A model generated the notes under the pieces. That model was not told the origin of the DNA. It was given only the letters and a program-made list of their open reading frames with translations, and ran no database searches. A DNA stretch of 64,000 nucleotides, from the NCBI RefSeq assembly GCF_041886205.1, contig NZ_CP169029.1. One strand, written 5' to 3'. Within the stretch, counting starts at the first letter, position 1. Each line of letters starts with the position of its first letter. The position numbers and the translations under genes are program-made. Source of the stretch: Escherichia coli (GTDB taxonomy: Bacteria; Pseudomonadota; Gammaproteobacteria; Enterobacterales; Enterobacteriaceae). Below, in pieces: positions 1,338 to 54,214 of this stretch.

Positions 1338-1469
1338 AAAATGCGAAGAATAGATTGATGCGATGAATATTTATTCAAAGGTTATTCGTATCACAGTGGA
1401 GATGGCTTTAGTAGCGACGTTTATGCCGTACTTCACATTTTCAGTTTCTGATTATTGAGGAAAGCTGCA

Positions 1470-2969
1470 ATGTCCGAAACATTTTTGCAAATGAAGCATA
1501 TCACCAAACGCTTTCCTGGAGTGTTGGCGCTTAATGACGTGCAATTTTCCCTACGCCGGGGCGAGGTTCATGCATTATTAGGTGAAAATGGTGCAGGAAA
1601 ATCTACCTTAATGAAAATTTTGTCGGGGGTTTATCAACCTGATGAAGGCGAAATAATTTTTGAAGATAAACCAGTCTCATTTTCTGATCCGTTAAGTGCG
1701 CAAAACGTAGGTATTACTATTATTCACCAGGAATTTAATTTATTTCCCGAGCTTACAGTAGAAGAAAATATTTTTATCGGCAGGGAGTTTTGTAAAAAAA
1801 ATCGCTGGCGTCTGGATGAAAAACAGCAACGCCAGGCGACGATTGAAATTTTGCAAAAATTAAATTTGGCGATCAAACCAGATACTCTGGTTGCCGACCT
1901 TACGGTAGCTCAGCAGCAGATGGTAGAAATTGCCAAGGCCATTTCAGTTAACGCCAGGATTCTCATTATGGATGAACCTACTGCGGCGTTAACAGAAACT
2001 GAAATTGAAAGCTTATTTCGCGTCACCCGGTTATTGAAAGAGCAGGGGACCGGCATTGTTTATATCTCCCACCGTCTGGAAGAGTTGGCGCTAATTGCCG
2101 ACCGTGCGACTGTAATGCGTGATGGTCAGTACATCAGCACGGTGGATTATGAGTGCGTAAAAATCAGCGATCTGATTGCCATGATGGTTGGTCGCGATTT
2201 AGGGAATATCTATCCCCGCCGCGAGGCCTTGCAGCAGCGGATTCCGGTTCTGGAGGTAAACGGACTGACGCGCAAAGGCGTCCTGAACGATATTAATTTT
2301 ACGCTTTATCGTGGCGAGATCCTCGGCTTTGCCGGACTGATGGGCGCGGGGCGTACTGAACTTGCGCGTGCGATTTTTGGTGCGGATTCTATTGACAGCG
2401 GAACGCTAAAATTAAATGGTAAGGAAACCGTTATTAAAGATATTTCGGATGCTATTCAGCAGGGAATTAGTTACCTGACGGAAGACCGCAAAAAAGAAGG
2501 GCTGGCGCTGAATTTATCTGTTGAACGAAATATTATGTTAGGAAACTACCCTGAATATTCCGATCGTTTTGGGAATGTCGATTCGCGTCGTTGCCAACAA
2601 ACCAGTGAGGAACAGGTAAAAGCGTTAAGGATTAAAACGCCAAATCTTGAACAGGCGGCATTAAATCTAAGTGGAGGAAACCAGCAGAAAATTATAATTG
2701 CACGTTGGGTGTGTAAAGATACTGATATTTTAATCTTCGATGAACCCACTCGCGGCATTGATGTTGGCGCCAAACTGGAAATCTATGAGTTAATGAATCG
2801 CCTGGTGGCAAAAGGGAAATCAATCATCATGATCTCCTCTGAATTGCCTGAGGTGTTAGGAATGTGCGACCGTATTTTAGTGATGCGCAGTGGTCGAATT
2901 ACCGGCGAACTTAGCGCAAAAGAAGCGACACAAGAAAAAATTATGCAATACGCGACGTTAGAGGATTAA
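1470..2969 (+). CDS. Sugar ABC transporter ATP-binding protein, two fused ABC domains (RbsA/XylG-like)
   Basis: ORF with Walker A GENGAGKST and second ABC domain; ATG 1470 with GAGG RBS (ORF track starts at TTG 1455). Confidence 0.85.
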   Translation: MSETFLQMKHITKRFPGVLALNDVQFSLRRGEVHALLGENGAGKSTLMKILSGVYQPDEGEIIFEDKPVSFSDPLSAQNVGITIIHQEFNLFPELTVEENIFIGREFCKKNRWRLDEKQQRQATIEILQKLNLAIKPDTLVADLTVAQQQMVEIAKAISVNARILIMDEPTAALTETEIESLFRVTRLLKEQGTGIVYISHRLEELALIADRATVMRDGQYISTVDYECVKISDLIAMMVGRDLGNIYPRREALQQRIPVLEVNGLTRKGVLNDINFTLYRGEILGFAGLMGAGRTELARAIFGADSIDSGTLKLNGKETVIKDISDAIQQGISYLTEDRKKEGLALNLSVERNIMLGNYPEYSDRFGNVDSRRCQQTSEEQVKALRIKTPNLEQAALNLSGGNQQKIIIARWVCKDTDILIFDEPTRGIDVGAKLEIYELMNRLVAKGKSIIMISSELPEVLGMCDRILVMRSGRITGELSAKEATQEKIMQYATLED

Positions 2970-2972
2970 ATT

Positions 2973-3956
2973 ATGACTATCTCTGTAACCTCTCCAGACA
3001 GTAATAATAAGAAAATAAAGATAAATAAAGAACTTTTGATGCGTCTTGCGCCTCTTTTTAGCTTAATTATATTAGTGCTGTTTTTTAGTTTCAGCTCTCC
3101 CTTTTTCTTTAATACCGAAAATATCATGACGATTGCTCTGCAAACGTCGGTTATCGGCATTATGGCCATTGGGGTAACTTTCGTCATTATTACCGCGGGC
3201 ATCGATCTTTCATTGGGCTCCGTGGTGGCTTTTTCTGGTGTCGCCGTGGGGATTTGCGCCACACTGGGCCTGCCGCTGCCAGTGTGTATTATTGCCGGTG
3301 TTTTAGCCGGTGGAATGTGCGGCTATGTGAATGGTTTGTTGGTCACTAAAATGACCATTCCACCATTTATCGCTACCTTGGGCCTGATGATGTCCGTCAG
3401 AGGTATCAATATGGTGATGACCGACGGGCGCGCCATCTATTTTGCCGATTACCCGATGTTCAAAACGCTCGCTCAGGGACGCTTATTTGATGTGCTGCCT
3501 TATCCTGTTTTCTACCTTGTCATTGTAGCGCTTGTCGGCGCTTACATCCTGAAGAAAACCGTCATTGGTCGCTATGTCTATGCCGTAGGCAGTAATGAAG
3601 TTGCTGCTCATCTTTCTGGTATTAAAGTTCAGCGCGTGAAAATTTTCGTCTATGCCTTCTGTGGATTATTAACGGGGATTGCAGGTGTCATTCTGGCATC
3701 TCGTCTCAACTCCGGACAACCGACGGTAGGTGTGGGTTATGAACTGGAAGCTATTGCCGCGGTAGTGATTGGCGGAACCAGCTTAATGGGCGGTATTGGC
3801 ACTATTGGCGGCACAATCATTGGCGCTTTCATTATGAGTGTACTGAAAAATGGCCTCAATTTAATGGGCGTCTCCCAGTTCTGGCAAATGGTCGCGATGG
3901 GCGTCGTTGTGGTCGCTGCCGTTTACCTCGATACATTACGCAAAAAGATTCGTTGA
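2973..3956 (+). CDS. Sugar ABC transporter permease (RbsC-like)
   Basis: 327-aa hydrophobic multi-TM protein; ATG 4 nt after ATPase stop; GAGGA RBS. Confidence 0.85.
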   Translation: MTISVTSPDSNNKKIKINKELLMRLAPLFSLIILVLFFSFSSPFFFNTENIMTIALQTSVIGIMAIGVTFVIITAGIDLSLGSVVAFSGVAVGICATLGLPLPVCIIAGVLAGGMCGYVNGLLVTKMTIPPFIATLGLMMSVRGINMVMTDGRAIYFADYPMFKTLAQGRLFDVLPYPVFYLVIVALVGAYILKKTVIGRYVYAVGSNEVAAHLSGIKVQRVKIFVYAFCGLLTGIAGVILASRLNSGQPTVGVGYELEAIAAVVIGGTSLMGGIGTIGGTIIGAFIMSVLKNGLNLMGVSQFWQMVAMGVVVVAAVYLDTLRKKIR

Positions 3957-4029
3957 CTTAGGCTCCCTGTTTTATCGGGAAACAACTGCCCTGACGTTAA
4001 GGGTGATTCACTCAGAACGGAGTACAACA

Positions 4030-4980
4030 ATGAAAACCAGGCATTTTATCTATGCGTTATCTCTGCTGGCTTGCGTAAGTTCCAGCGCACTGGCGAAGGA
4101 TTTAAATCTTCCGGTTGTTAGTAAAGGTTTCCAACATGAATTCTGGCAAACCGTAAAAATGGGGACTGAAGCTGCGGCTAAAGAGTTGGGGGATAAAACC
4201 AGCTATGTTGGCCCGGCTGATGAAACGCAAATAGCCGAGCAAATTCAGTTAGTCGAAAATGCGATGGCGCAGAAACCGAATGGCTTGCTTCTGGCAGCCC
4301 TCGACGCGAATGCGCTCGCCCCACTGGTAGAAACGGCAAATTCACGCGGTATCAAAGTGGTGACCTTTGATTCAGGCATCAATTCAGACATTCCGGTGAG
4401 TTTTGTCGCCACCAATAACCGTAAAGCAGGTGCTCAGGCAGCTGATGCCTTAGCCTCGCAGGTAAATAATAAAGGGAAAGTTGGGATTATCGCGCACGTT
4501 GCAGGAACATCTTCCGCTATTGAACGCTCGGAAGGCTTCATGGAGCGTATGAAAGAAAAATATCCTGACATTAAAGTCTTACCCGTTCAGTACAGCGATG
4601 GTGACCCGCAAAAAGCGATGGATAAAACTATCGATATGATTCAGGCCAATCCCGATCTTGCTGGGATCTATGGCACCAATGAAGGTTCAACGCTCGGGGT
4701 GGCGAATGCCATTGATAGCCAGAATCTGAAAGGTAAGGTGAAGGTCATTGGTTTTGATAGTACGGAAGCGATTATTAACTTCCTGAAGAACGGCGTCATT
4801 CAGGGCTTTGTTGTTCAGGATGCATACCAGATTGGCTATCAAGGGATCAAAACGTTGAACGCGGCCCTTTCGGGGCAAGCCGTTGAAAAAGAGATCGATA
4901 TTCCCGTGAAATTTGTTAATGCCGAGAATATTAACACGCCAGAAATCGACAAACTCCTGCACCCATTCGGTAAGAAATAA
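4030..4980 (+). CDS. Periplasmic sugar-binding protein of ABC transporter (RbsB-like)
   Basis: Signal peptide MKTRHFIYALSLLACVSSSALA then PBP-like domain; ATG 4030 with GGAG RBS (ORF track start 3907 is an upstream extension). Confidence 0.8.
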   Translation: MKTRHFIYALSLLACVSSSALAKDLNLPVVSKGFQHEFWQTVKMGTEAAAKELGDKTSYVGPADETQIAEQIQLVENAMAQKPNGLLLAALDANALAPLVETANSRGIKVVTFDSGINSDIPVSFVATNNRKAGAQAADALASQVNNKGKVGIIAHVAGTSSAIERSEGFMERMKEKYPDIKVLPVQYSDGDPQKAMDKTIDMIQANPDLAGIYGTNEGSTLGVANAIDSQNLKGKVKVIGFDSTEAIINFLKNGVIQGFVVQDAYQIGYQGIKTLNAALSGQAVEKEIDIPVKFVNAENINTPEIDKLLHPFGKK

Positions 4981-5032
4981 AAAATTGGGGATGAATTTTC
5001 ATCCCCGTTATCTCCAGCGTCAGGGAGGCTTT

Positions 5033-6613
5033 ATGCACAACGGTTATTTTCTCGGTGTCGATGTCGGATCGGCCAGTGTCAGGGCAGGCGTTTACAGTGC
5101 CAGTGGCCACAGGCTGGCATTCGCTACTGCGCCCGTCTCCCAGTTTCGCCCTGGCGGCGAGCGTGTCGAACAGTCTTCGGCAGAGATCTGGCAACAAGTT
5201 TGTAAAACGGTGAAAGAGGCGACAGCTTTGGCAGGCATCCCCATTTCCGCAATTCGCTCACTGGGTTTTGACGCTACCTGCTCGCTGGTTGTTCTTGATG
5301 AACAAGGCCAGGGTTTAGCGGTTTCGTCCGGTGGATCTGCGAATCACGACATTATTATGTGGATGGATCATCGTGCAACTGTCGAGACGGCGCAGATTAA
5401 CGCAATGAAGGATCCCGCATTGCGCTACGTTGGCGGCGAAGTGAGCGTCGAGATGGAGTTACCAAAGTTACGTTGGTTGAAGACGCATCTACCGCAAACC
5501 TGGCAGGCCGCTCATCGCTTTTTCGATCTGGCGGATTTTCTGGTCTGGAAAGCAACAGGGCGAGACGTCGCGGGATTATGCACGCTAACGTGTAAATGGA
5601 ATTATCTAGCTCATGAGCAACGCTTTAGCCATAGCTTACTGGAATCGATAGACCTGACCGATATGCTTGAAAGAATTCCTGCCAACATTCTTCCGCCTGG
5701 CGCTGCCGTGGGAACGTTAACCGCCACAGCTGCTGAAGAGTTAGGATTAACGACTAATGTTATCGTGGCCAGTGGCTTGATTGATGCCCATGCCGGTGGC
5801 GTGGCGCTGGCTGGCGCTCACCCATCAGGAACGCTGGCATTGATAAGCGGAACGTCGAACTGCCATATGCTGTGTAGTGAAAAAGAGATATTCACCCCTG
5901 GCGTCTGGGGGCCATACTGGTCGGCCATGTTGCCAAATTACTGGCTAACCGAAGGCGGGCAAAGCGCCGCAGGGGCGCTGGTGGAGTGGACGCTTCAGGA
6001 GTCAGGGGCAAGCGCAAATCTTTTTCACAAGGCGCAGCAACGCGGATGTCATCCGATTCAACTGATTAATGAATGGGTAGCAGCCCTTGAAGCTAACGAG
6101 TCAGAACCCACACGAAATTTACATGTGCTTGCCGATCATCACGGCAACCGTTCGCCACGAGCGCGGCCCGATGCCAGAGGCAGTGTTTATGGCTTAACAC
6201 TGGAGCGTGGTGAAAATCAGCTCGCGCGACTTTATCTTGCGACTTTACAGGCAATAGCCTTTGGCACCAGACATATTATTGAAACTCTGCGGGAAAATGG
6301 GCATACCATTACCCGATTAACATTATGTGGTGGTGCAACGCACAACCCTTTATGGCTACGCGAATATGCAGACGTGACAGGTTGCGATATCCACCTGATG
6401 CAAGAAGAAGATGCCGTTACGTTGGGCGCAGCAATTAGCGGCGCTGTTGCCAGCGGAGCATGGGGGGATTTTACATCTGCGTGTAAAGCAATGGTTGAAG
6501 CCGGAGAGATTATTCAGGTAAATCCACAACGCCGTGAATTTTTAGAGCGTAAATACCGGGTTTACCTGACGCTTTGGGAGCAACAACAGGCGGTTAACCA
6601 ACTGATGCAATAA
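5033..6613 (+). CDS. FGGY-family carbohydrate kinase (pentulose/ribulokinase-like)
   Basis: N-terminal YFLGVDVGSASVRAGV glycine-rich kinase motif and C-terminal LCGGATHNPLW motif typical of FGGY kinases; ATG 5033 with GGGAGG RBS. Confidence 0.8.
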   Translation: MHNGYFLGVDVGSASVRAGVYSASGHRLAFATAPVSQFRPGGERVEQSSAEIWQQVCKTVKEATALAGIPISAIRSLGFDATCSLVVLDEQGQGLAVSSGGSANHDIIMWMDHRATVETAQINAMKDPALRYVGGEVSVEMELPKLRWLKTHLPQTWQAAHRFFDLADFLVWKATGRDVAGLCTLTCKWNYLAHEQRFSHSLLESIDLTDMLERIPANILPPGAAVGTLTATAAEELGLTTNVIVASGLIDAHAGGVALAGAHPSGTLALISGTSNCHMLCSEKEIFTPGVWGPYWSAMLPNYWLTEGGQSAAGALVEWTLQESGASANLFHKAQQRGCHPIQLINEWVAALEANESEPTRNLHVLADHHGNRSPRARPDARGSVYGLTLERGENQLARLYLATLQAIAFGTRHIIETLRENGHTITRLTLCGGATHNPLWLREYADVTGCDIHLMQEEDAVTLGAAISGAVASGAWGDFTSACKAMVEAGEIIQVNPQRREFLERKYRVYLTLWEQQQAVNQLMQ

Positions 6614-6677
6614 GACAAAAGTTGAAAATACTTTTATGATTGTGATTTGACGTCTGGATGTTAACTGGGAAATACCT

Positions 6678-7676
6678 ATGGCTAAAACAGTAGAGCAGAT
6701 AGCCAGCGACCTGAATTTATCGGTTACGACCGTGCGACTGGTGCTAAATGGAAAAGCGGAACAATATCGAATCAGCGTCAAAACCCAAACGCGTATCAAT
6801 GAATATGTTGAACGCTATGGTTATATCATTAATCATTCCGCTCGCAGCCTTAAGCTTAACAAAACTGATACATTAGGGTTGATTGTTCCCAACATATCCA
6901 ACGTCTTTTTTGCTACGCTGGCAGAAAAACTCGAACAACGCTGTCGACGTTCCGGATATCAACTTACAATCAGTTGCACTTATGATGATGTTGACTATGA
7001 AAATAAATTGACGAAAGCATTTATCGCACGAAATGTAGATGGTCTTTTTATTGTTCCTTCGACGCTGGAAAATCAGCAGCATCATTTACGCAAAATTCGT
7101 AAGCCCATGGTTTTACTCGATCGTGATTTTAAATATACCGATAACGCATTGGTAGAGAGTAATAATATTTCTGGCGGAGAAAAGCTGACGCAAAATATTC
7201 TTGAGGCCGGGCAGACTCCAGTATGGTTTTTGCTGGGAGATGCCGGTTTGCCGAGTATCAGCGATCGTCTGACAGGTTATTTGAATGCGTTGGCAAAAAA
7301 AGGGATTACCCATCGCGATTGGGTGCGGGAAGGTCCGGTAAATACTCCGGAAGGCGGCTATGTCATTATGGAAAAACTCATTGAAGAGCAGGGATGTCCG
7401 CAGGCATTTATCGCCTCGTCTTTGCCTGTGCTTGAAGGCGCTGTCCGCGCGATTCGCGACCGTCTTGGCGCTGTACCGCCAGAAATCAATATTGGCACTT
7501 TCGATGAACATCCTATGCTGGGATTTCTCGCCAACAATGTCTGGTCAATGCAGCAGGATGAAAATGCCTGGGCAGAAAAAGCGTTCGAAATGATGTTAAG
7601 CGCGATCGAAGAAAGACCAGTCAAAAAAACAGTTAAAGTAGAAATGAAATTAATTAAGCGCATAAGAAAAAAATAA
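6678..7676 (+). CDS. LacI-family transcriptional regulator
   Basis: N-terminal HTH (TVEQIASDLNLSVTTVRLVLNG) plus periplasmic-binding-like sugar domain; Lys-rich C-terminal tail. Confidence 0.85.
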   Translation: MAKTVEQIASDLNLSVTTVRLVLNGKAEQYRISVKTQTRINEYVERYGYIINHSARSLKLNKTDTLGLIVPNISNVFFATLAEKLEQRCRRSGYQLTISCTYDDVDYENKLTKAFIARNVDGLFIVPSTLENQQHHLRKIRKPMVLLDRDFKYTDNALVESNNISGGEKLTQNILEAGQTPVWFLLGDAGLPSISDRLTGYLNALAKKGITHRDWVREGPVNTPEGGYVIMEKLIEEQGCPQAFIASSLPVLEGAVRAIRDRLGAVPPEINIGTFDEHPMLGFLANNVWSMQQDENAWAEKAFEMMLSAIEERPVKKTVKVEMKLIKRIRKK

Positions 7677-17022: not shown

Positions 17023-17388
17023 GTCGACAGGGAGTCAGACAACGAAGTGAACATCAGGATGATGACACTTCTGCAGGACACACCAGGATGGTGTTTCAGG
17101 GAAAGGCTTCTGGATGAAGCGAAGAGGATGACGCAGGACGCGTTAAAGGACACCTCCAGGATGGAGAATGAGAACCGGTCAGGATGATTCGGTGGGTCAG
17201 GAAGGCCAGGGACACTTCAGGATGAAGTATCACATCGGGGTGGTGTGAGCAGGAAGCAATAGTTCAGGATGAACGATTGGCCGCAAGGCCAGAGGAAAAG
17301 TTGTCAAGGATGAGCAGGGAGCAACAAAAGTAGCTGGAATGCTGCGAAACGAACCGGGAGCACTGTGAATACAGTGCTCCCTTTTTTT
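17023..17388 (+). ncRNA. csrB: CsrB small RNA (CsrA-sequestering)
   Basis: About 365 nt with many repeated CAGGAUG / AGGA motifs (CsrA binding sites), ending in a GC hairpin (17355-17380) plus T7 run. Confidence 0.93.
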
Positions 17389-17433
17389 ATTCCTGCTATC
17401 CTTCGCGGCAGTTTTTCTTATTGAGGTTGCTTT

Positions 17434-23734: not shown

Positions 23735-26491
23735 TTACCCGAGAATTTTGCTGGCTTCGCGCGCGACATTATCCATCTCGTCCAACAGTTCCAGCAGCTC
23801 CGGCTCCAAATCTTCTTCTTTAGTACCGCTACGTAGCTGTTGTTCGATCAGTTGGCAGAGATTCTTCATACGCGGCACACCGCTATAGCCGCAACTGCCA
23901 TGCAGTTTATGAATCAAATCAACCAGGCCTTCTGGGTTTTCTCCAACCAGCTGTTCCTCAACTTTGTTGCGAACTTCAGGCAGGAAATCGAGTAACATTT
24001 GCAGCATATCGCGCGCTAAATCGGTTTTTCCTGCTGCCTGGCGTAGTGCCAGTTGCCAGTCGAGGGTCGCATTCGGGTTCACCACAATTTCGTTGACTTC
24101 GGGCGTCACGACGCGAGACGAAATACCGCTGCCAGGCTTGTAGCGCAACAACAAATTATGCAATCGCTCTTCTTCAATCGGTTTCGCCAGATAATCGCTC
24201 ATCCCTGCGCCAAGCAGCTTCTCTTTTTGCCCGGCCATTGCATGCGCCGTTACCGCGATAACCGGCGTTTGTTGCTGATGGGGGAGCTGGTGGATGAGCT
24301 CGCAGGCCCGAATGCCATCCATGTCAGGCATTTGAATATCCATTAAGATCAAATCGAACGGCATCTGTTTCGCCCGTTCAACCGCCTGATGCCCGCTATC
24401 GCAAAGTTCCACATGTTGCACCATATCTTCCAGCAATGCGCCGATAAGTTTCAGGTTAGCGGGGTTGTCATCAACTGCCATGACTGTCATTGCCAGCTTG
24501 CTTTCATCGGTTACAGGCAAAAGCGTGTTTTGTTTGTGATGACAAAATTCCGTCAGGGCAGGCAACAGGCGTGTAGGTGTTAATGGTTTCAGCAGACACG
24601 CGCCGATACCATCTTGCTTGAGTTTTTCAGCATTGACTTGTGCATGGCAAGGAAGTGCCAGCATCAGGAAATCGGTCATCGATACCGCTTTCGCTAATCG
24701 CTCATGTTGCATTGTTAGCGGCTCGCGGAAGGTCACCGCGATGCCTAACAACATCATGTCGTAATGCGCGGGAGGCAGCGCGGAGAACGTTGGGCTATAA
24801 ACCACTTCCAGCGGCGTTTCACTTAAAATATCCAGCGTGCATTGCGCTGCTGCGGAGTTTGGTTCGACATAGGCCAGGCGCTTACCTGCGAGGCACTGGG
24901 TGGATGGCCCTTCGATAATAATGTTCGGGTTCAGATCGAGATTAATGTGGAACCAGAAAGTTGAACCGCGATTCGGCTGGCTATGGAACGAAATATCGCC
25001 GCCCATTTCATTAACCAGTTTTTGTGTAATCACCAGCCCCAGCCCGGTGCCACCATGACGGCGGGAAATACTGGCATCAGCCTGTCGGAAGGCCTGGAAT
25101 AAGCGCGATTGATCGCGTTCAGGAATACCAATGCCGGTATCCCGAATCTGCACTTCAATCTGCACTTTGGTATTACTCAGCGCACGTTTTTCTACCAGAA
25201 TATCAATGTTGCCATTCTCGGTGAATTTAATTGCATTCCCCACCAGGTTAGTGATGATTTGCTGTAATCGCAGCGGGTCGCCGATCACGTTATCAGGCAC
25301 GTCGCTTTTAATATTGAGCGTCAGTTCCAACCCTTTATCGTGAGAAGAATGTGCCAGCAGAGTAACGACTTCATCCAGCGTGCTGCGTAGTGGGAATGGA
25401 ATACTTTCCAGAATCAGCTTACCTGCTTCCAGTTTCGAGAAGTCGAGAACATCATTAATAATTGCCAGCAAATTATTTGCCGAACGTTCAATCGTATTCA
25501 GGTGATCGCGCTGCGTTGGTGTTAATTCTGTTTTCAGCGTCAGGCGGGTAAAGCCAATAACACCATTCAGTGGTGTACGCAGCTCGTGTGACATATTTGC
25601 CAGAAACTCGGATTTAATACGCGCCGCTTCCTGGGCGCGCTTTTTCGCCAGATCCAACTCAACGTTCTGAATTTCCATCTGCTCCAGCGTTTCACGCAGA
25701 TCGGACGTCGCCTGGTCGATATTGTGCTGCATCTCTTCGTGATAAGCAGCCAGCGACATTGCCATCGAGTTGATACCGTTTTTCAGCATATCCAGCTCGC
25801 CGAGCATAAATCCTTCCACCCGGCTGTCGAGTTGCCCGCGACGGATGCGGTCGACGGTATTCACCATGTTGCGAATCGGACCGGTTACATCGCGCATTAA
25901 GCGCCAGCCAAAAATAAGCGCAATACCGATACAAAACAGCATCATCACGCTGGAAATAAAGATCTCTTTATATTGCTGCAAGCGAACCGATTTAAGATCC
26001 AGCTCAAGCGCAATATATCCCAACATATTTTGACTATTTTTGGCATCGCTACTGGGCGATTCGTCGGGGGAGTAACTCTCAGAAATAATCGGCGTGCGGA
26101 GGATCATAATATCGCCGTCACGAGTGACAGTGAGCTGGCGAGGAAAAGGCACGTTGCTGCCGAGCTGCATCGATGAGGGATCAAGATGAAAATTGGAGGT
26201 GACAAAGAGTCGGTTATTTTCATCATAAACCGAAATCGCGCGAACAATATCGGAATGGCGACGATGCAGTACGCTTATTAACTGACCGATAGATTCGCGA
26301 TTTTGCAGGCTCATGCCATATTCAGTAGAAACTGCAAGCGGCTCAATAATGCTGGCACCGGCATCTTCCAGTTGACGCTGCAAGTCGTTATAGCGATGCA
26401 CGACGAAAAAGATACTCAGCAATAAACCAATAAGGACGGTCGGTGCCAGGATCAGAATCATCATGCGTGCGCGCAGGCTGTAGTTGGTCAT
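23735..26491 (-). CDS. barA: Hybrid sensor histidine kinase BarA
   Basis: 918 aa with TM, HAMP, HisKA/HATPase, receiver and HPt regions. Confidence 0.95.
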
Positions 26492-27896: not shown

Positions 27897-30131
27897 ATGG
27901 TTGCGGTAAGAAGTGCACATATCAATAAGGCTGGTGAATTTGATCCGGAAAAATGGATCGCAAGTCTGGGTATTACCAGCCAGAAGTCGTGTGAGTGCTT
28001 AGCCGAAACCTGGGCGTATTGTCTGCAGCAGACGCAGGGGCATCCGGATGCCAGTCTGTTATTGTGGCGTGGTGTTGAGATGGTGGAGATCCTCTCGACA
28101 TTAAGTATGGACATTGACACGCTGCGGGCGGCGCTGCTGTTCCCTCTGGCCGATGCCAACGTAGTCAGCGAAGATGTGCTGCGTGAGAGCGTCGGTAAGT
28201 CTGTCGTTAACCTTATTCACGGCGTGCGTGATATGGCGGCGATCCGCCAGCTGAAAGCGACGCACACTGATTCTGTTTCCTCCGAACAGGTCGATAACGT
28301 TCGCCGGATGTTATTGGCGATGGTCGATGATTTTCGCTGCGTGGTCATCAAACTGGCGGAGCGTATTGCTCATCTGCGCGAAGTAAAAGATGCGCCGGAA
28401 GATGAACGCGTACTGGCGGCAAAAGAGTGCACCAATATCTACGCGCCGTTGGCGAACCGTCTTGGGATTGGGCAACTGAAATGGGAGCTGGAAGATTACT
28501 GCTTCCGTTATCTGCACCCGACCGAATACAAACGCATCGCAAAACTGCTGCATGAACGCCGTCTCGACCGCGAACACTATATCGAAGACTTTGTCGGTCA
28601 TCTGCGCGCTGAGATGAAAGCTGAAGGCGTTAAAGCTGAAGTGTATGGCCGTCCGAAACACATCTACAGCATCTGGCGCAAAATGCAGAAAAAGAACCTC
28701 GCCTTCGATGAGCTGTTTGATGTGCGTGCGGTACGTATTGTCGCCGAGCGTTTACAGGATTGTTATGCCGCACTGGGGATAGTGCACACTCACTATCGCC
28801 ACCTGCCGGATGAGTTTGACGATTATGTCGCTAACCCGAAACCAAACGGTTATCAGTCTATTCATACCGTGGTTCTGGGGCCAGGTGGCAAAACCGTTGA
28901 GATCCAAATCCGCACCAAACAGATGCATGAAGATGCAGAGTTGGGTGTTGCTGCGCACTGGAAATATAAAGAGGGCGCGGCAGCTGGCGGCGCACGTTCG
29001 GGACATGAAGACCGGATTGCCTGGCTGCGTAAACTGATTGCGTGGCAGGAAGAGATGGCTGATTCCGGCGAAATGCTCGACGAAGTACGCAGCCAGGTCT
29101 TTGACGACCGGGTGTATGTCTTTACGCCGAAAGGTGATGTCGTTGATTTACCTGCGGGATCAACGCCGCTGGACTTCGCTTACCACATCCACAGTGATGT
29201 CGGACACCGCTGCATCGGGGCAAAAATTGGCGGGCGCATTGTGCCGTTCACCTACCAGCTGCAGATGGGCGACCAGATTGAAATTATCACCCAGAAACAG
29301 CCGAACCCCAGCCGTGACTGGTTAAACCCAAACCTCGGTTACGTCACAACCAGCCGTGGGCGTTCGAAAATTCACGCCTGGTTCCGTAAACAGGACCGTG
29401 ACAAAAACATTCTGGCTGGGCGGCAAATCCTTGACGACGAGCTGGAACATCTGGGGATCAGCCTGAAAGAAGCAGAAAAACATCTGCTGCCGCGTTACAA
29501 CTTTAATGATGTCGACGAGTTGCTGGCGGCGATTGGTGGCGGGGATATCCGTCTCAATCAGATGGTGAACTTCCTGCAATCGCAATTTAATAAGCCGAGT
29601 GCCGAAGAGCAGGACGCCGCCGCGCTGAAGCAACTTCAGCAAAAAAGCTACACGCCGCAAAACCGCAGTAAAGATAACGGTCGCGTGGTAGTCGAAGGTG
29701 TTGGCAACCTGATGCACCACATCGCGCGCTGCTGCCAGCCGATTCCTGGAGATGAGATTGTCGGCTTCATTACCCAGGGGCGCGGTATTTCAGTACACCG
29801 CGCCGATTGCGAACAACTGGCGGAACTGCGCTCCCATGCGCCAGAACGCATTGTTGACGCGGTATGGGGTGAGAGCTACTCCGCCGGATATTCGCTGGTG
29901 GTCCGCGTGGTGGCTAATGATCGTAGTGGGTTGTTACGTGATATCACGACCATTCTCGCCAACGAGAAGGTGAACGTGCTTGGCGTTGCCAGCCGTAGCG
30001 ACACCAAACAGCAACTGGCGACCATCGACATGACCATTGAGATTTACAACCTGCAAGTGCTGGGGCGCGTGCTGGGTAAACTCAACCAGGTGCCGGATGT
30101 TATCGACGCGCGTCGGTTGCACGGGAGTTAG
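27897..30131 (+). CDS. relA: GTP pyrophosphokinase, (p)ppGpp synthetase I
   Basis: 744 aa, RelA/SpoT family. Confidence 0.96.
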   Translation: MVAVRSAHINKAGEFDPEKWIASLGITSQKSCECLAETWAYCLQQTQGHPDASLLLWRGVEMVEILSTLSMDIDTLRAALLFPLADANVVSEDVLRESVGKSVVNLIHGVRDMAAIRQLKATHTDSVSSEQVDNVRRMLLAMVDDFRCVVIKLAERIAHLREVKDAPEDERVLAAKECTNIYAPLANRLGIGQLKWELEDYCFRYLHPTEYKRIAKLLHERRLDREHYIEDFVGHLRAEMKAEGVKAEVYGRPKHIYSIWRKMQKKNLAFDELFDVRAVRIVAERLQDCYAALGIVHTHYRHLPDEFDDYVANPKPNGYQSIHTVVLGPGGKTVEIQIRTKQMHEDAELGVAAHWKYKEGAAAGGARSGHEDRIAWLRKLIAWQEEMADSGEMLDEVRSQVFDDRVYVFTPKGDVVDLPAGSTPLDFAYHIHSDVGHRCIGAKIGGRIVPFTYQLQMGDQIEIITQKQPNPSRDWLNPNLGYVTTSRGRSKIHAWFRKQDRDKNILAGRQILDDELEHLGISLKEAEKHLLPRYNFNDVDELLAAIGGGDIRLNQMVNFLQSQFNKPSAEEQDAAALKQLQQKSYTPQNRSKDNGRVVVEGVGNLMHHIARCCQPIPGDEIVGFITQGRGISVHRADCEQLAELRSHAPERIVDAVWGESYSAGYSLVVRVVANDRSGLLRDITTILANEKVNVLGVASRSDTKQQLATIDMTIEIYNLQVLGRVLGKLNQVPDVIDARRLHGS

Positions 30132-30145
30132 GCCGAAATTTGCTC

Positions 30146-30191
30146 GTATCTACAATGTAGATTGATATATACTGTATCTACATATGATAGC
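30146..30191. promoter_or_regulatory. mazEF promoter with alternating palindrome (MazE-MazF autoregulation site)
   Basis: ATCTACAATGTAGATTGATATATACTGTATCTACATATGATAGC directly upstream of mazE. Confidence 0.6.
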
Positions 30192-30208
30192 GGTTTGAGG
30201 AAAGGGTT

Positions 30209-30457
30209 ATGATCCACAGTAGCGTAAAGCGTTGGGGAAATTCACCGGCGGTGCGGATCCCGGCTACGTTAATGCAGGCGCTCAATCTGAATATTGATGA
30301 TGAAGTGAAGATTGACCTGGTGGATGGCAAATTAATTATTGAGCCAGTGCGTAAAGAGCCCGTATTTACGCTTGCTGAACTGGTCAACGACATCACGCCG
30401 GAAAACCTCCACGAGAATATCGACTGGGGAGAGCCGAAAGATAAGGAAGTCTGGTAA
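30209..30457 (+). CDS. mazE: Antitoxin MazE
   Basis: 82 aa, [27 protein letters not shown]...; stop overlaps mazF start (TAATG). Confidence 0.95.
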
Positions 30458-30792
30458 TGGTAAGCCGATACGTACCCGATATGGGCGATCTGATTTGGGT
30501 TGATTTTGACCCGACAAAAGGTAGCGAGCAAGCCGGACATCGTCCGGCTGTTGTCCTGAGTCCGTTCATGTACAACAACAAAACAGGTATGTGTCTGTGT
30601 GTTCCTTGTACAACGCAATCAAAAGGATATCCGTTCGAAGTTGTTTTATCCGGTCAGGAACGTGATGGCGTAGCGTTAGCTGATCAAGTAAAAAGTATCG
30701 CCTGGCGGGCAAGAGGAGCAACGAAGAAAGGAACGGTTGTCCCAGAGGAATTACAACTCATTAAAGCCAAAATTAACGTACTGATTGGGTAG
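30457..30792 (+). CDS. mazF: mRNA interferase toxin MazF
   Basis: 111 aa, [35 protein letters not shown]... Confidence 0.95.
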   Translation: MVSRYVPDMGDLIWVDFDPTKGSEQAGHRPAVVLSPFMYNNKTGMCLCVPCTTQSKGYPFEVVLSGQERDGVALADQVKSIAWRARGATKKGTVVPEELQLIKAKINVLIG

Positions 30793-30862
30793 TGTTACTA
30801 ACTCACTTCTATTCTGGTCACAGGTTTCCACCTGACAGACCCGCAATTTTCAGGACATTCTA

Positions 30863-31654
30863 ATGAATCAAATCGACCGTTTGCTCACTATTATGCAGCG
30901 CCTGCGCGATCCGGAAAACGGCTGCCCGTGGGATAAAGAGCAGACATTTGCCACCATTGCGCCTTACACCCTTGAAGAAACCTACGAAGTGCTGGACGCC
31001 ATCGCCCGTGAAGATTTTGACGATCTGCGCGGTGAACTGGGCGATCTGCTATTCCAGGTGGTGTTTTACGCGCAAATGGCTCAGGAAGAAGGGCGCTTTG
31101 ACTTTAATGATATTTGCGCTGCTATTAGCGATAAATTAGAGCGTCGCCATCCGCATGTTTTTGCTGATAGTTCTGCCGAAAACAGTAGTGAAGTGCTTGC
31201 CCGTTGGGAGCAAATCAAAACCGAAGAGCGCGCGCAGAAAGCGCAGCATTCGGCGCTGGACGATATTCCTCGTAGTTTACCGGCTTTAATGCGGGCGCAA
31301 AAAATCCAGAAACGTTGCGCCAACGTTGGCTTCGACTGGACGACGCTTGGCCCGGTGGTTGATAAAGTCTACGAAGAGATCGACGAGGTGATGTACGAGG
31401 CGCGGCAGGCTGTTGTCGACCAGGCTAAACTGGAGGAGGAAATGGGGGACCTGCTGTTTGCCACGGTTAATCTGGCTCGCCATTTAGGGACGAAAGCAGA
31501 AATCGCATTGCAAAAAGCGAACGAAAAATTCGAGCGTCGTTTTCGCGAAGTGGAGCGTATTGTTGCCGCGCGTGGACTGGAAATGACAGGTGTTGACCTC
31601 GAAACAATGGAAGAAGTCTGGCAACAGGTAAAACGGCAGGAAATTGATCTCTAA
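30863..31654 (+). CDS. mazG: Nucleoside triphosphate pyrophosphohydrolase MazG
   Basis: 263 aa, tandem MazG domains. Confidence 0.93.
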   Translation: MNQIDRLLTIMQRLRDPENGCPWDKEQTFATIAPYTLEETYEVLDAIAREDFDDLRGELGDLLFQVVFYAQMAQEEGRFDFNDICAAISDKLERRHPHVFADSSAENSSEVLARWEQIKTEERAQKAQHSALDDIPRSLPALMRAQKIQKRCANVGFDWTTLGPVVDKVYEEIDEVMYEARQAVVDQAKLEEEMGDLLFATVNLARHLGTKAEIALQKANEKFERRFREVERIVAARGLEMTGVDLETMEEVWQQVKRQEIDL

Positions 31655-31667
31655 GGGAATTACGCGG

Positions 31668-31709
31668 TCAAGCGCCATTTGTGTCATTTTTTAAATGACA
31701 AGCGCTTGA
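31668..31709 (+). terminator. Inverted repeat / probable terminator after mazG
   Basis: TCAAGCGC ... GCGCTTGA outer arms with inner TGTCATT / AATGACA arms, followed by TTTGCGTC. Confidence 0.4.
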
Positions 31710-31866
31710 TTTGCGTCAAAAACATTTACCCCAAAGGGGCTATTTTCTCACTCCTGATTTCAATAGTGCGCTGGCGAAGAGGAGGGATAATGAAAGTTTG
31801 TGGCACAGGTCATGTTCGGGTATACTGCTTTCCCGTCCTGGTTATTCCATCGTCTTTTCAACCTAA

Positions 31867-33519
<1,653 letters not shown>

Positions 33520-39936: not shown

Positions 39937-41259
39937 TTATTTCTGTTTATTCATGGCGAAAACAAATGGCAGATAAATGATAACCGACAAGCTGATTAAA
40001 AATACGGATAGCACCGCAGCTCTCCAGTCTCCTCCCGTAGCCAGGAAGGCGCTAATCACTGGTGGCGTTGTCCATGGCACAAGAACATATGTATGGTTAA
40101 TCAAATCCATTGCCGTCGCGGCATAAGCAATCACGATGCTGATAATCGGAGTGAATAAAAATGGTACAATTAGCACCGGGTTGAACATAATTGGCAAACC
40201 AAAAATGATGGGTTCATTTATGTTGAACAACATCCCAGGAGTTGCCAGACGAGTAATCGCACGATGCTCTGATTTTTTCGCTGCAATCCATAAAGCAATC
40301 AGTAAGCCGATTGTCTGGCCTCCGCCGCCCATAAATCCAAAGGCATCGATGAACGGTTTTGTGACGATATGTGGGATTTCAAGGCCAGCCTTAAACGCGG
40401 CAGTATTTTCCTGAATCGCCACCAGCAGGGTTGTCTCAGTAATAGGGTACATGATACTGGCACCATGGATCCCTGCCCACCATAATCCGTTTTGCGTCAA
40501 AAGTAGTCCTATTACTCCGCTCAGACCCTGTAAAATATTTTGCAGCGGAGCCTGAATCATCAGAGTAACGATTTCATGTATGTTTTTGTTGAAGAGACTG
40601 CTTAACGACCATGCAAAGAGACTCAGCAAGGTTAACACCAGGATCATCGGTATTAATACGTTAAAGCTCCTTGATACGGAGGGGGGAACTGAATCAGATA
40701 AAGTAATTTTCAATTTAGATGAGGCCGAAACTTTGCGAAAAAGTTCAGTGGAAATAAGCGCCACAAATATGCCTACAAACATACCAGACGCGCCACTTTC
40801 ATTGCCGCTGATTAGCCCCGAAACCTGAAAAACCTCGCCCGTCGGCGCTGTAACGGGAATGGTGACCGGGAACAAAACAAATAAACATGCCAGTGAGAAG
40901 ATGGCATACGTTATCCCATCCTCGCCATAGCTGTTGGCTAATCGATATGAAATCATCACCGTTGCCAGAAAGGCGAGAATATTCAGCGTTCCGTTATAGA
41001 CGCGGATGCCAATTTCCTGTAGGTGGCGAACCCATGCGCCTTCCAGCCCCAGAAAACCGACTAAACCGGATTCGCCGTTGAGCAATACATTATTTATTAA
41101 TATAAATAGAGACGCAGCAATAATTAAAGGCATGAGCGCGACAAATGATTCCCTCACTGCCGAAAGATGTCGCTGTCCTGAAAAATCGCCCGCCCAATTA
41201 GAGATCTTGTCAATGAAAACAAGACCACTCCCACTTTTAATTTTATTGATGAAATTCAT
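39937..41259 (-). CDS. PTS lactose/cellobiose-family EIIC permease
   Basis: 440-aa polytopic membrane protein, ChbC/CelB-like. Confidence 0.85.
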   Translation of the reverse strand: MNFINKIKSGSGLVFIDKISNWAGDFSGQRHLSAVRESFVALMPLIIAASLFILINNVLLNGESGLVGFLGLEGAWVRHLQEIGIRVYNGTLNILAFLATVMISYRLANSYGEDGITYAIFSLACLFVLFPVTIPVTAPTGEVFQVSGLISGNESGASGMFVGIFVALISTELFRKVSASSKLKITLSDSVPPSVSRSFNVLIPMILVLTLLSLFAWSLSSLFNKNIHEIVTLMIQAPLQNILQGLSGVIGLLLTQNGLWWAGIHGASIMYPITETTLLVAIQENTAAFKAGLEIPHIVTKPFIDAFGFMGGGGQTIGLLIALWIAAKKSEHRAITRLATPGMLFNINEPIIFGLPIMFNPVLIVPFLFTPIISIVIAYAATAMDLINHTYVLVPWTTPPVISAFLATGGDWRAAVLSVFLISLSVIIYLPFVFAMNKQK

Positions 41260-46077: not shown

Positions 46078-46350
46078 GAGTTCCCCGCGCCAGCGGGGAT
46101 AAACCGTTCGCTGGCAATCCACTCAGGAATTTCGGGAAGAGTTCCCCGCGCCAGCGGGGATAAACCGGGCAGTACCGACATGGACGGTCACCACGAGTTG
46201 AGTTCCCCGCGCCAGCGGGGATAAACCGTGTATAGCGCCAAAATTGACGAAAGACATGTTGAGTTCCCCGCGCCAGCGGGGATAAACCGGTTGTAGCTGA
46301 CAATGTAAATCATGGATTTACGAGTTCCCCGTGCCAGCGGGGATAACCAT
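46078..46350 (+). CRISPR. Type I-E CRISPR array: 5 repeats (last degenerate), 4 spacers of 32 nt
   Basis: 29-bp repeat GAGTTCCCCGCGCCAGCGGGGATAAACCG at 46078, 46139, 46200, 46261; degenerate GAGTTCCCCGTGCCAGCGGGGATAACCAT at 46322. Confidence 0.95.
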
Positions 46351-51981: not shown

Positions 51982-52245
51982 ATATTGCCGGATAAATTAA
52001 ACGCCTCTGTCAGAAATGATGGGGGCGTTTTTATTTTGCGAGCAGCATTCCTGATTTTAAACGTGAAAATAGCAGAGGGAATCAGCAGGCATAGAATGGC
52101 GTCGGGTGCTTGAGGCTGTCTGGCGTTGAGCATTCGCGAGGTTCCAGATGGACAAAAGCCCCAGGCGATATTTCTATCAACCTGAGGCCAGCGTTCGAAC
52201 CTAAGCAATTCGGATGTTAGTCTCTTCTTTGCAGGGAGGCAAGAC

Positions 52246-52398
52246 ATGCTGACAAAATATGCCCTTGTGGCAATCATCGTACTGTGTTGTACAGTACTGG
52301 GATTCACGCTGATGGTAGGCGACTCGTTGTGTGAGTTGAGTATCAGAGAACGTGGTATGGAGTTTAAGGCAGTTCTCGCTTACGAATCGAAGAAGTAG
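52246..52398 (+). CDS. Hok/Gef-family type I toxin (hokX-like locus)
   Basis: 50-aa [53 protein letters not shown]: N-terminal TM helix plus conserved C-terminal LCE..IR....E.A..AYES pattern of Hok proteins. Confidence 0.7.
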
Positions 52399-52635
52399 CC
52401 ACCACGCGGGGGGTAAAATCCCGCGTACTGAATTGTGATGGTTTGGTCTCCTGCACCCTTTTTAATTTATATTGTTTATGTGAATATTATGCCTGTGTTT
52501 ATTATTTATATGTTTTATAGATGAAAACCATTGAATTATTCACAATGTAAATATTTTAATGAACGATATATATCACAGATAATTTTTAATATATGCGTAA
52601 ATATCCTTTAAGTTTTACGAAAGGATAAAAACATT

Positions 52636-54063: not shown

Positions 54064-54214
54064 GTGTTCCCCGCGCCAGCGGGGATAAACCGCCATTCTT
54101 GTTGTCGTTCATCAAGCGCAGGGGGTGTTCCCCGCGCCAGCGGGGATAAACCGGGTAAATAACACAGCGTTTGAAACAGGCAAAAGTGTTCCCCGCGCCA
54201 GCGGGGATAAACCG
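54064..54214 (+). CRISPR. Type I-E CRISPR array remnant: 3 repeats, 2 spacers, no leader
   Basis: GTGTTCCCCGCGCCAGCGGGGATAAACCG at 54064, 54125, 54186 with 32-nt spacers; directly abuts the cas3 fragment. Confidence 0.92.

Follow-up and report, generated by a model that had tools for sequence, protein, structure and literature searches.

The mazEF module of the laboratory strain Escherichia coli K-12 (chpAI/chpAK; b2783/b2782) is, to our knowledge, the first chromosomal toxin-antitoxin module described. Several modules are related to it. The chromosomal paralogue ChpS/ChpB of E. coli (b4224/b4225) shares the fold families, the antitoxin-first order (an AbrB-type gene, then a PemK/MazF-type gene) and the overlapping genes. 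The toxins of Kis/Kid (parD of R1), PemI/PemK and plasmid MazEF have the PemK_toxin family in common with MazF, and these are plasmid-maintenance modules with operators of their own. MazF/EndoA (YdcE) of Bacillus subtilis adopts the same fold as E. coli MazF, with the catalytic residues Arg25 and Thr48 corresponding to Arg29 and Thr52. The recognition site of EndoA is UACAU and not ACA, and the antitoxin paired with EndoA is of another fold. The two toxins are about 24% identical (PMC10864209). The physiological role of mazEF is disputed; the proposals in the literature (among it the review PMC4803016) range from programmed death and phage exclusion to persistence or reversible stasis and to simple addiction.

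We compared these systems with a mazEF locus contained in a 64-kb stretch of DNA from E. coli (hereafter the window). An ungapped alignment with K-12 MG1655 over 5.5 kb revealed 78 differences, none of which lies within positions 29913-30533. Within this block, which takes in the 3′ end of relA, the whole intergenic region, mazE and mazF up to its 77th nt, the window therefore has the same bases as the characterised strain. The locus, its neighbours, MazE, the operator cab, the 5′ UTR, the body of the antisense RNA aMEF and the TAATG gene overlap are all shared with K-12 mazEF, from which the window differs by the MazF substitution A95V, five synonymous SNPs in mazF and three SNPs a short way ahead of mazG. 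A ~300-nt section of relA (28409-28706) holds about 27 of the 78 differences, for the most part spaced by multiples of three; the presence of this cluster beside the difference-free block suggests a recombination mosaic.

Identity to the ChpB/ChpS pair is only 37% for the toxin and 33% for the antitoxin, and the chpB locus sits elsewhere, beside ppa. Membership of that pair was rejected, as MazF scored 54.0 bits against a ChpB cut-off of 129 and MazE 34.6 bits against a ChpS cut-off of 101. Kid was recovered by sequence (PDB 1M1F, E=4.3e-9). Among plasmids, 1,567 records contain MazF relatives, which reach 69% identity (on a Klebsiella IncF plasmid) and still have an AbrB/MazE antitoxin gene beside them. 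Kis/Kid and PemI/PemK are plasmid modules, whereas the window mazEF is chromosomal.

An intact mazEF module between relA and mazG

Open reading frames were listed in all six frames and the region was also read directly. The gene order in the window is barA-rlmD-relA-mazE-mazF-mazG-pyrG-eno, on an E. coli chromosome. The 744-codon ORF upstream of the module (27897-30131, plus strand) is relA, encoding GTP diphosphokinase, because its product contains HD_4, RelA_SpoT, TGS and ACT domains; the gene is annotated in E. coli AH04 and in K-12. Its stop codon ends at 30131, 77 nt before mazE, in agreement with the original prediction, which placed the module downstream of relA. On the other side lies mazG (30863-31654, plus strand), a nucleoside triphosphate pyrophosphohydrolase gene whose product matches PF03819, NF007113 and TIGR00444. 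The position of mazEF between these two genes was confirmed from the ORFs and domains and from the RefSeq annotation of AH04 and K-12. Across the locus, AH04 shows 100% DNA identity over 771 nt, and its RefSeq annotation has relA, mazE, mazF and mazG at matching positions. With the same 771-nt query, 4,743 of the 5,426 complete E. coli genomes gave matches. Every one of the 4,746 matches in E. coli fell on a chromosome, and 0 on plasmids.

The antitoxin gene mazE (30209-30457, plus strand) encodes 82 residues from ATG to TAA, is identical in DNA sequence to K-12 mazE, and has a Shine-Dalgarno-like run, GAGGAAAGGG, immediately on its 5′ side. The protein is identical at 82/82 positions to crystallised E. 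coli MazE (PDB 1MVF_D, 1UB4_C). It scores 52.9 bits against Pfam PF04014 MazE_antitoxin (cut-off 24.7) and 196.2 bits against the NCBIfam equivalog NF007312 (cut-off 113), which places it in that family. MazE comprises an N-terminal AbrB/SpoVT-type DNA-binding domain (residues 1-50) and a disordered, acidic, MazF-binding C-terminal tail (residues 51-82). The identical protein has been described as proteolytically labile (ClpAP/Lon) and as neutralising MazF (PMC8749433, PMC10864209).

The toxin gene mazF (30457-30792, plus strand) encodes 111 residues from ATG to TAG, predicted to form an ACA-specific endoribonuclease. The protein is identical at 110/111 positions to K-12 MazF and to PDB entries 3NFC, 5CK9 and 1UB4. 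It scores 83 bits against Pfam PF02452 PemK_toxin (cut-off 23.1) and, over residues 1-111 of 111, reaches 225.6 bits against the NCBIfam equivalog NF007386 (cut-off 120), and is thus a member of that family also. Arg29, Thr52, Glu24 and Arg4 are all present; in the E. coli enzyme, the first two have been reported to act on the scissile phosphate (PMC10864209). From the 110/111 identity to the assayed protein, MazF of the window would be expected to cleave RNA at ACA independently of ribosomes and to arrest growth.

Both ORFs were predicted to be full length and to overlap by one nucleotide, and both statements stand. The junction reads TGG TAA TG G, with the mazE stop at 30455-30457 and the mazF ATG at 30457-30459, so that the A of the TAA stop codon is also the A of the ATG. 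The two small genes are adjacent on the same strand, antitoxin first, with overlapping stop and start codons, which is the layout of a type II toxin-antitoxin operon. The assignment to this class was borne out by the Pfam and NCBIfam equivalog matches together with near-identity to solved E. coli structures, and the description of the module as a known system by the locus, proteins and operator that it shares with K-12 mazEF. No sequence evidence contradicting a canonical mazEF identity was found. The locus is almost certainly the chromosomal mazEF (chpA) type II toxin-antitoxin module of E. coli at its usual site between relA and mazG. It is E. coli mazEF itself, more than a mere resemblance to it, and this module is already known and long studied; the present copy is intact and nearly the same as that of the laboratory reference strain. 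Observed directly were the integrity of the genes, the identity of the proteins and operator to the characterised ones, the families to which the proteins belong, the genomic setting and the distribution among genomes. The module looks functional; that it is active, how it is regulated and what it does for this strain are inferred.

Operator, antisense RNA and proposed mechanism

The region upstream of mazE was predicted to contain an alternating palindrome, and its three arms were found at 30148-30183: ATCTACA (30148-30154), ATGTAGAT (30155-30162) and ATCTACAT (30176-30183). They form two perfect inverted repeats that share the middle arm. In the first, ATCTACA is 100% complementary to TGTAGAT (30156-30162); in the second, ATGTAGAT is 100% complementary to ATCTACAT. 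Therefore, the middle arm can pair with either the upstream or the downstream arm. The 44-nt string originally given for the palindrome has a single exact occurrence, at 30148-30191, and the start assigned to it, 30146, was 2 nt early. Position 30146 is instead where a 9-nt direct repeat, GTATCTACA, begins (copies at 30146-30154 and 30174-30182). When the 77-nt intergenic region was shuffled 20,000 times with its dinucleotides preserved, a three-arm arrangement with 7-nt arms arose in 4 shuffles, and the geometry exceeds chance. The only other three-arm instances in the 64-kb window are CRISPR repeats.

The alternating palindrome was described by Marianovsky et al. 2001, whose account, as given in a review (PMC4803016), has the middle part pairing with either flank. 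According to the same review, promoters P2 and P3 sit 13 nt apart inside the palindrome and are repressed by MazE, more strongly by MazE-MazF, and a Fis site farther upstream of the palindrome activates transcription (PMC4803016). The fragments to which MazE binding has been characterised were taken from Zorzini et al. 2015 (PMC4333400). The first 50 of the 51 nt of oligo cab, which carries three MazE-dimer sites, have a unique exact match in the window at 30143-30192. Within it, and likewise with one exact match each, lie site c (oligo GTATCTACAATGTAGATTG) at 30146-30164, site a (oligo TTGATATATACTGT) at 30162-30175 and site b (oligo ATATACTGTATCTACATAT) at 30167-30185; site a holds the perfect palindrome ATATAT at 30165-30170. 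At the level of sequence, the proposal of an autoregulatory operator is thus upheld. Three MazE dimers bind c, a and b with micromolar affinity, site a (ATATAT) being the preferred site of highest affinity, and MazF strengthens the binding of MazE to DNA at a ratio of about 1:1 but weakens it when present in large excess (PMC4333400).

Promoter elements were less readily recognised. A sigma-70 consensus scan of 29900-31900 gave no convincing P2 or P3 promoter in the operator; the sole nearby match (30184-30213) is weak and overlaps the mazE start, and the number of matches in the region was not above that in shuffles. Since the scan did not recover them, the positions of P2 and P3 are taken from the literature and from the identity with K-12. 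A candidate Fis-type site, GGCCGAAATTTGCTC, lies at 30131-30145. It is a G...C 15-mer centred on AAATTT; no other G-N13-C 15-mer from the relA stop to the operator has an A/T-rich centre. The sequence is identical in K-12, and it would be a plausible Fis site. Downstream, a terminator scan gave only minus-strand candidates and, in the 70-nt mazF-mazG spacer, no terminator-like site on the plus strand, which may weakly favour read-through into mazG. Co-transcription of mazG with mazEF has been reported (PMC4803016), but Northern blots did not show it reproducibly (PMC8749433).

The locus also includes the gene for aMEF (ameF, b4844), an antisense RNA of ~400 nt. The K-12 RefSeq ncRNA (2911051-2911450) was mapped by ungapped alignment to 30098-30497 on the minus strand, where it spans the first 41 nt of mazF, the whole of mazE, the operator and the last ~34 nt of relA. 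The aMEF body lies entirely within the difference-free block 29913-30533, is 100% identical to that of K-12, and is by sequence the same RNA. As characterised in PMC8749433, aMEF is made from a weak, non-canonical promoter inside mazF and can be seen only when RNase III is mutated; it increases the levels of MazE and MazF and promotes a monocistronic mazE transcript. Two of the SNPs relative to K-12, at 30534 and 30546, fall within mazF upstream of the mapped aMEF start (30497), by ~37 and ~49 nt, and the promoter may differ in strength in this strain. The mechanical ORF list additionally contains a TTG-initiated frame of 146 codons on the minus strand (30178-30618), antisense to mazE and 5′ mazF, which starts upstream of the aMEF start.

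The following mechanism is carried over from established work on the same sequence, and would apply to this strain by that identity. mazE and mazF would be co-transcribed from promoters embedded in the operator, and their translation may be coupled through the TAATG overlap. MazF is expected to be a dimeric, ribosome-independent endoribonuclease that cuts single-stranded RNA at ACA through Arg29 and Thr52, leaving a 2′,3′-cyclic phosphate and a 5′-OH. The MazE dimer would bind DNA through its N-terminal AbrB-type domain, whilst its disordered C-terminal tail would wrap MazF dimers to give an inactive MazF2-MazE2-MazF2 complex. Occupation of c, a and b (30143-30192) by MazE, and more tightly by MazE-MazF, should repress transcription, and a large excess of MazF should weaken this binding. 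MazE would be degraded by ClpAP and Lon; hence, once synthesis stops, MazF would be freed to cleave mRNAs, including its own message. aMEF, running from 30497 to 30098 on the minus strand, would modulate expression of the pair.

Variation in mazF and in the presence of the module

The mazF gene differs from that of K-12 at six positions, five of them synonymous (codons 26, 30, 36, 77 and 93). The sixth, 30740 C>T, changes GCC to GTC and produces A95V, the sole amino-acid difference from the characterised MazF; the crystallised and assayed protein carries A95 and the window allele V95. The synonymous change in codon 93 (ACA>ACG at 30735) leaves the mazF message with one MazF recognition triplet fewer than in K-12, and eight overlapping ACA occurrences are still present. 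To count the alleles, we used exact 41-mer searches centred on the variant in 5,426 complete E. coli genomes. The K-12 type, ACA93/A95, was found in 3,610 genomes, ACG93/A95 in 723 (O157:H7 included) and the window allele, ACG93/V95, in 43, whilst ACA93/V95 was found in 0 genomes. V95 is thus invariably linked to ACG93 and accounts for ~1% of module-bearing complete genomes. Since ACA93/V95 is missing from this set and the intermediate ACG93/A95 occurs in 723 genomes, V95 arose on the ACG93 background. The hosts of V95 isolates include human, cattle, goat, pig, chicken, echidna, frog and bear.

We further aligned eight MazF-family sequences, consisting of the window and K-12 proteins, ChpB and five relatives from plasmids (34-70% identical). 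All eight keep Arg29. Column 95 holds V in the window protein and A, A, S, L, D, E and A in the others, the Leu belonging to a Zymomonas MazF of 56% identity. A95V therefore appears as a conservative change at a variable position. In the two structural or inhibitor papers on MazF searched for it (PMC10864209 included), no mention of a role for residue 95 was found. The alignment to MazE and MazF that had been proposed as a check gave 82/82 and 110/111 identical residues relative to the PDB entries, and revealed no frameshift and no active-site substitution in MazF, with A95V as the single change. Because this change looks conservative at a variable position, and because Arg29 and Thr52 are intact, neither possible objection to an intact toxin holds.

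The module as a whole is polymorphic in E. coli. In isolate CB7453, mazG follows relA directly, without mazEF. Alignment with this empty site delimits a mazEF cassette of ~700 bp (30133-30830, plus strand), identity extending through the relA stop plus 1 nt and resuming at 30831, 32 nt before the mazG ATG. In the empty allele, 30133-30830 is replaced by an unrelated filler of ~63 nt (3948-4010 in L003, NZ_OZ392432.1), which may be a relA terminator, since it folds into strong hairpins (-28.9 kcal/mol). The module is present in 4,415 complete E. coli genomes and the empty allele in 1,007, together 5,422 of the 5,426. At the cassette borders, we found no flanking repeats and no integrase. The original prediction omitted this polymorphism, as well as the aMEF antisense RNA and the A95V allele.

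These results bear on three other interpretations. One concerns what the cassette is for: mazEF may be mainly a selfish, dispensable addiction cassette without an adaptive function for the host, its molecular mechanism remaining as set out above. The polymorphism would be compatible with a dispensable element, as the module is cleanly present or absent, has sharp borders just past the relA stop and 32 nt before mazG, brings its own operator and promoter, and has relatives that are common on plasmids, many of them conjugative. We nevertheless regard the proposal as doubtful, if possible, given that the borders lack repeats and an integrase, that the module is kept in 81% of genomes with very low divergence, and that phenotypes in stress, persistence and phage infection have been reported in the literature (reviewed in PMC4803016).

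The other two interpretations concern the operator and the toxin. The operator might work, as was proposed at first, through alternative DNA secondary structures formed by c-a or a-b pairing, and not through linear sites that each bind a MazE dimer independently. The geometry of the three arms is real and unusual by the shuffling statistics, and many point mutations in the palindrome kept MazEF binding, which was read as recognition of structure over sequence (PMC4803016). Against this, ITC, NMR and SAXS show that MazE binds specifically to short double-stranded oligos with a single site, that the three sites on cab do not interact, and that the preferred site a is centred on ATATAT rather than on the arms (PMC4333400). 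We therefore consider a structural switch unlikely and retain the three linear sites. As for the toxin, the module could be intact whilst A95V, with or without the loss of one ACA, attenuates or alters MazF by changing its stability, its affinity for MazE or the cleavage of its own mRNA. That A95V is the only departure from the characterised protein, and that V95 is a derived minor allele (43 genomes versus 723 and 3,610, and 0 with ACA93/V95), could be taken in this sense, as could the report that MazF cuts its own mRNA at ACA as negative feedback (PMC8749433), for which the window message offers one site fewer. Yet an Ala-to-Val change is conservative, column 95 varies and even accommodates Leu in the Zymomonas protein, residue 95 goes unmentioned in the two structural or inhibitor papers searched for it, eight overlapping ACA triplets are left in mazF, and the V95 allele is kept, its ORF intact, in isolates from a wide range of hosts. 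An attenuated toxin thus seems very improbable, and an ordinary mazEF remains our reading of the locus.

Other features of the window and significance

Several further features of the window were recorded alongside mazEF. A chromosomal hok/sok type I toxin-antitoxin locus lies between cysH and a cas3 remnant, with sok at 52104-52261 (Rfam match of 108 bits, gathering score 59) and hok at about 52247-52399; AH04 has a Hok/Gef CDS at the corresponding place. Two short type I-E-style CRISPR arrays occupy 46082-46282 (4 cores) and 54068-54207 (3 cores), with repeat cores CCCCGCTGGCGCGGGGA at a spacing of 61 nt. The AH04 counterpart of the second array adjoins a cas3 pseudogene that is truncated and frameshifted, and the AH04 annotation has no cas operon, for which reasons the arrays look orphan. 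The region of the second array is ~122 nt (two repeat-spacer units) shorter in the window than in AH04. The CsrB small RNA (17032-17391, full-length Rfam match of 383 bits) is encoded between syd and yqcC, about 6 kb from barA (23735-26491), whose two-component system controls csrB. A PTS EIIC gene (39937-41259) is intact in the window as a 440-aa ORF and is split by an IS1A insertion in the otherwise near-identical AH04, which also has small indels relative to the window and a partial IS4-family transposase pseudogene annotated near this gene. The window thus comes from a strain closely related to AH04 and different from it. Finally, from fucI to fucA-fucO (1455-7676), the AH04 annotation lists a sugar ABC transporter (ATPase, permease and binding protein), an FGGY-family kinase and a LacI-family regulator. 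K-12 presumably has fucK-fucU-fucR in this region, in which case 1455-7676 would be a variant fucose-region gene set.

The mazEF proteins, structures, operator and antisense RNA have all been published, and the locus carries little weight as a discovery. Its use is in annotation: the module can be recorded as intact, aMEF can be added, the cassette borders can be set against a natural empty allele, and the rare MazF A95V can be flagged. We think it highly improbable that V95/ACG93 is a functional variant, in the form of a toxin with changed stability or MazE affinity or of a transcript with weaker self-cleavage feedback. If it were, V95/ACG93 might shift the activation threshold of the module in this lineage.
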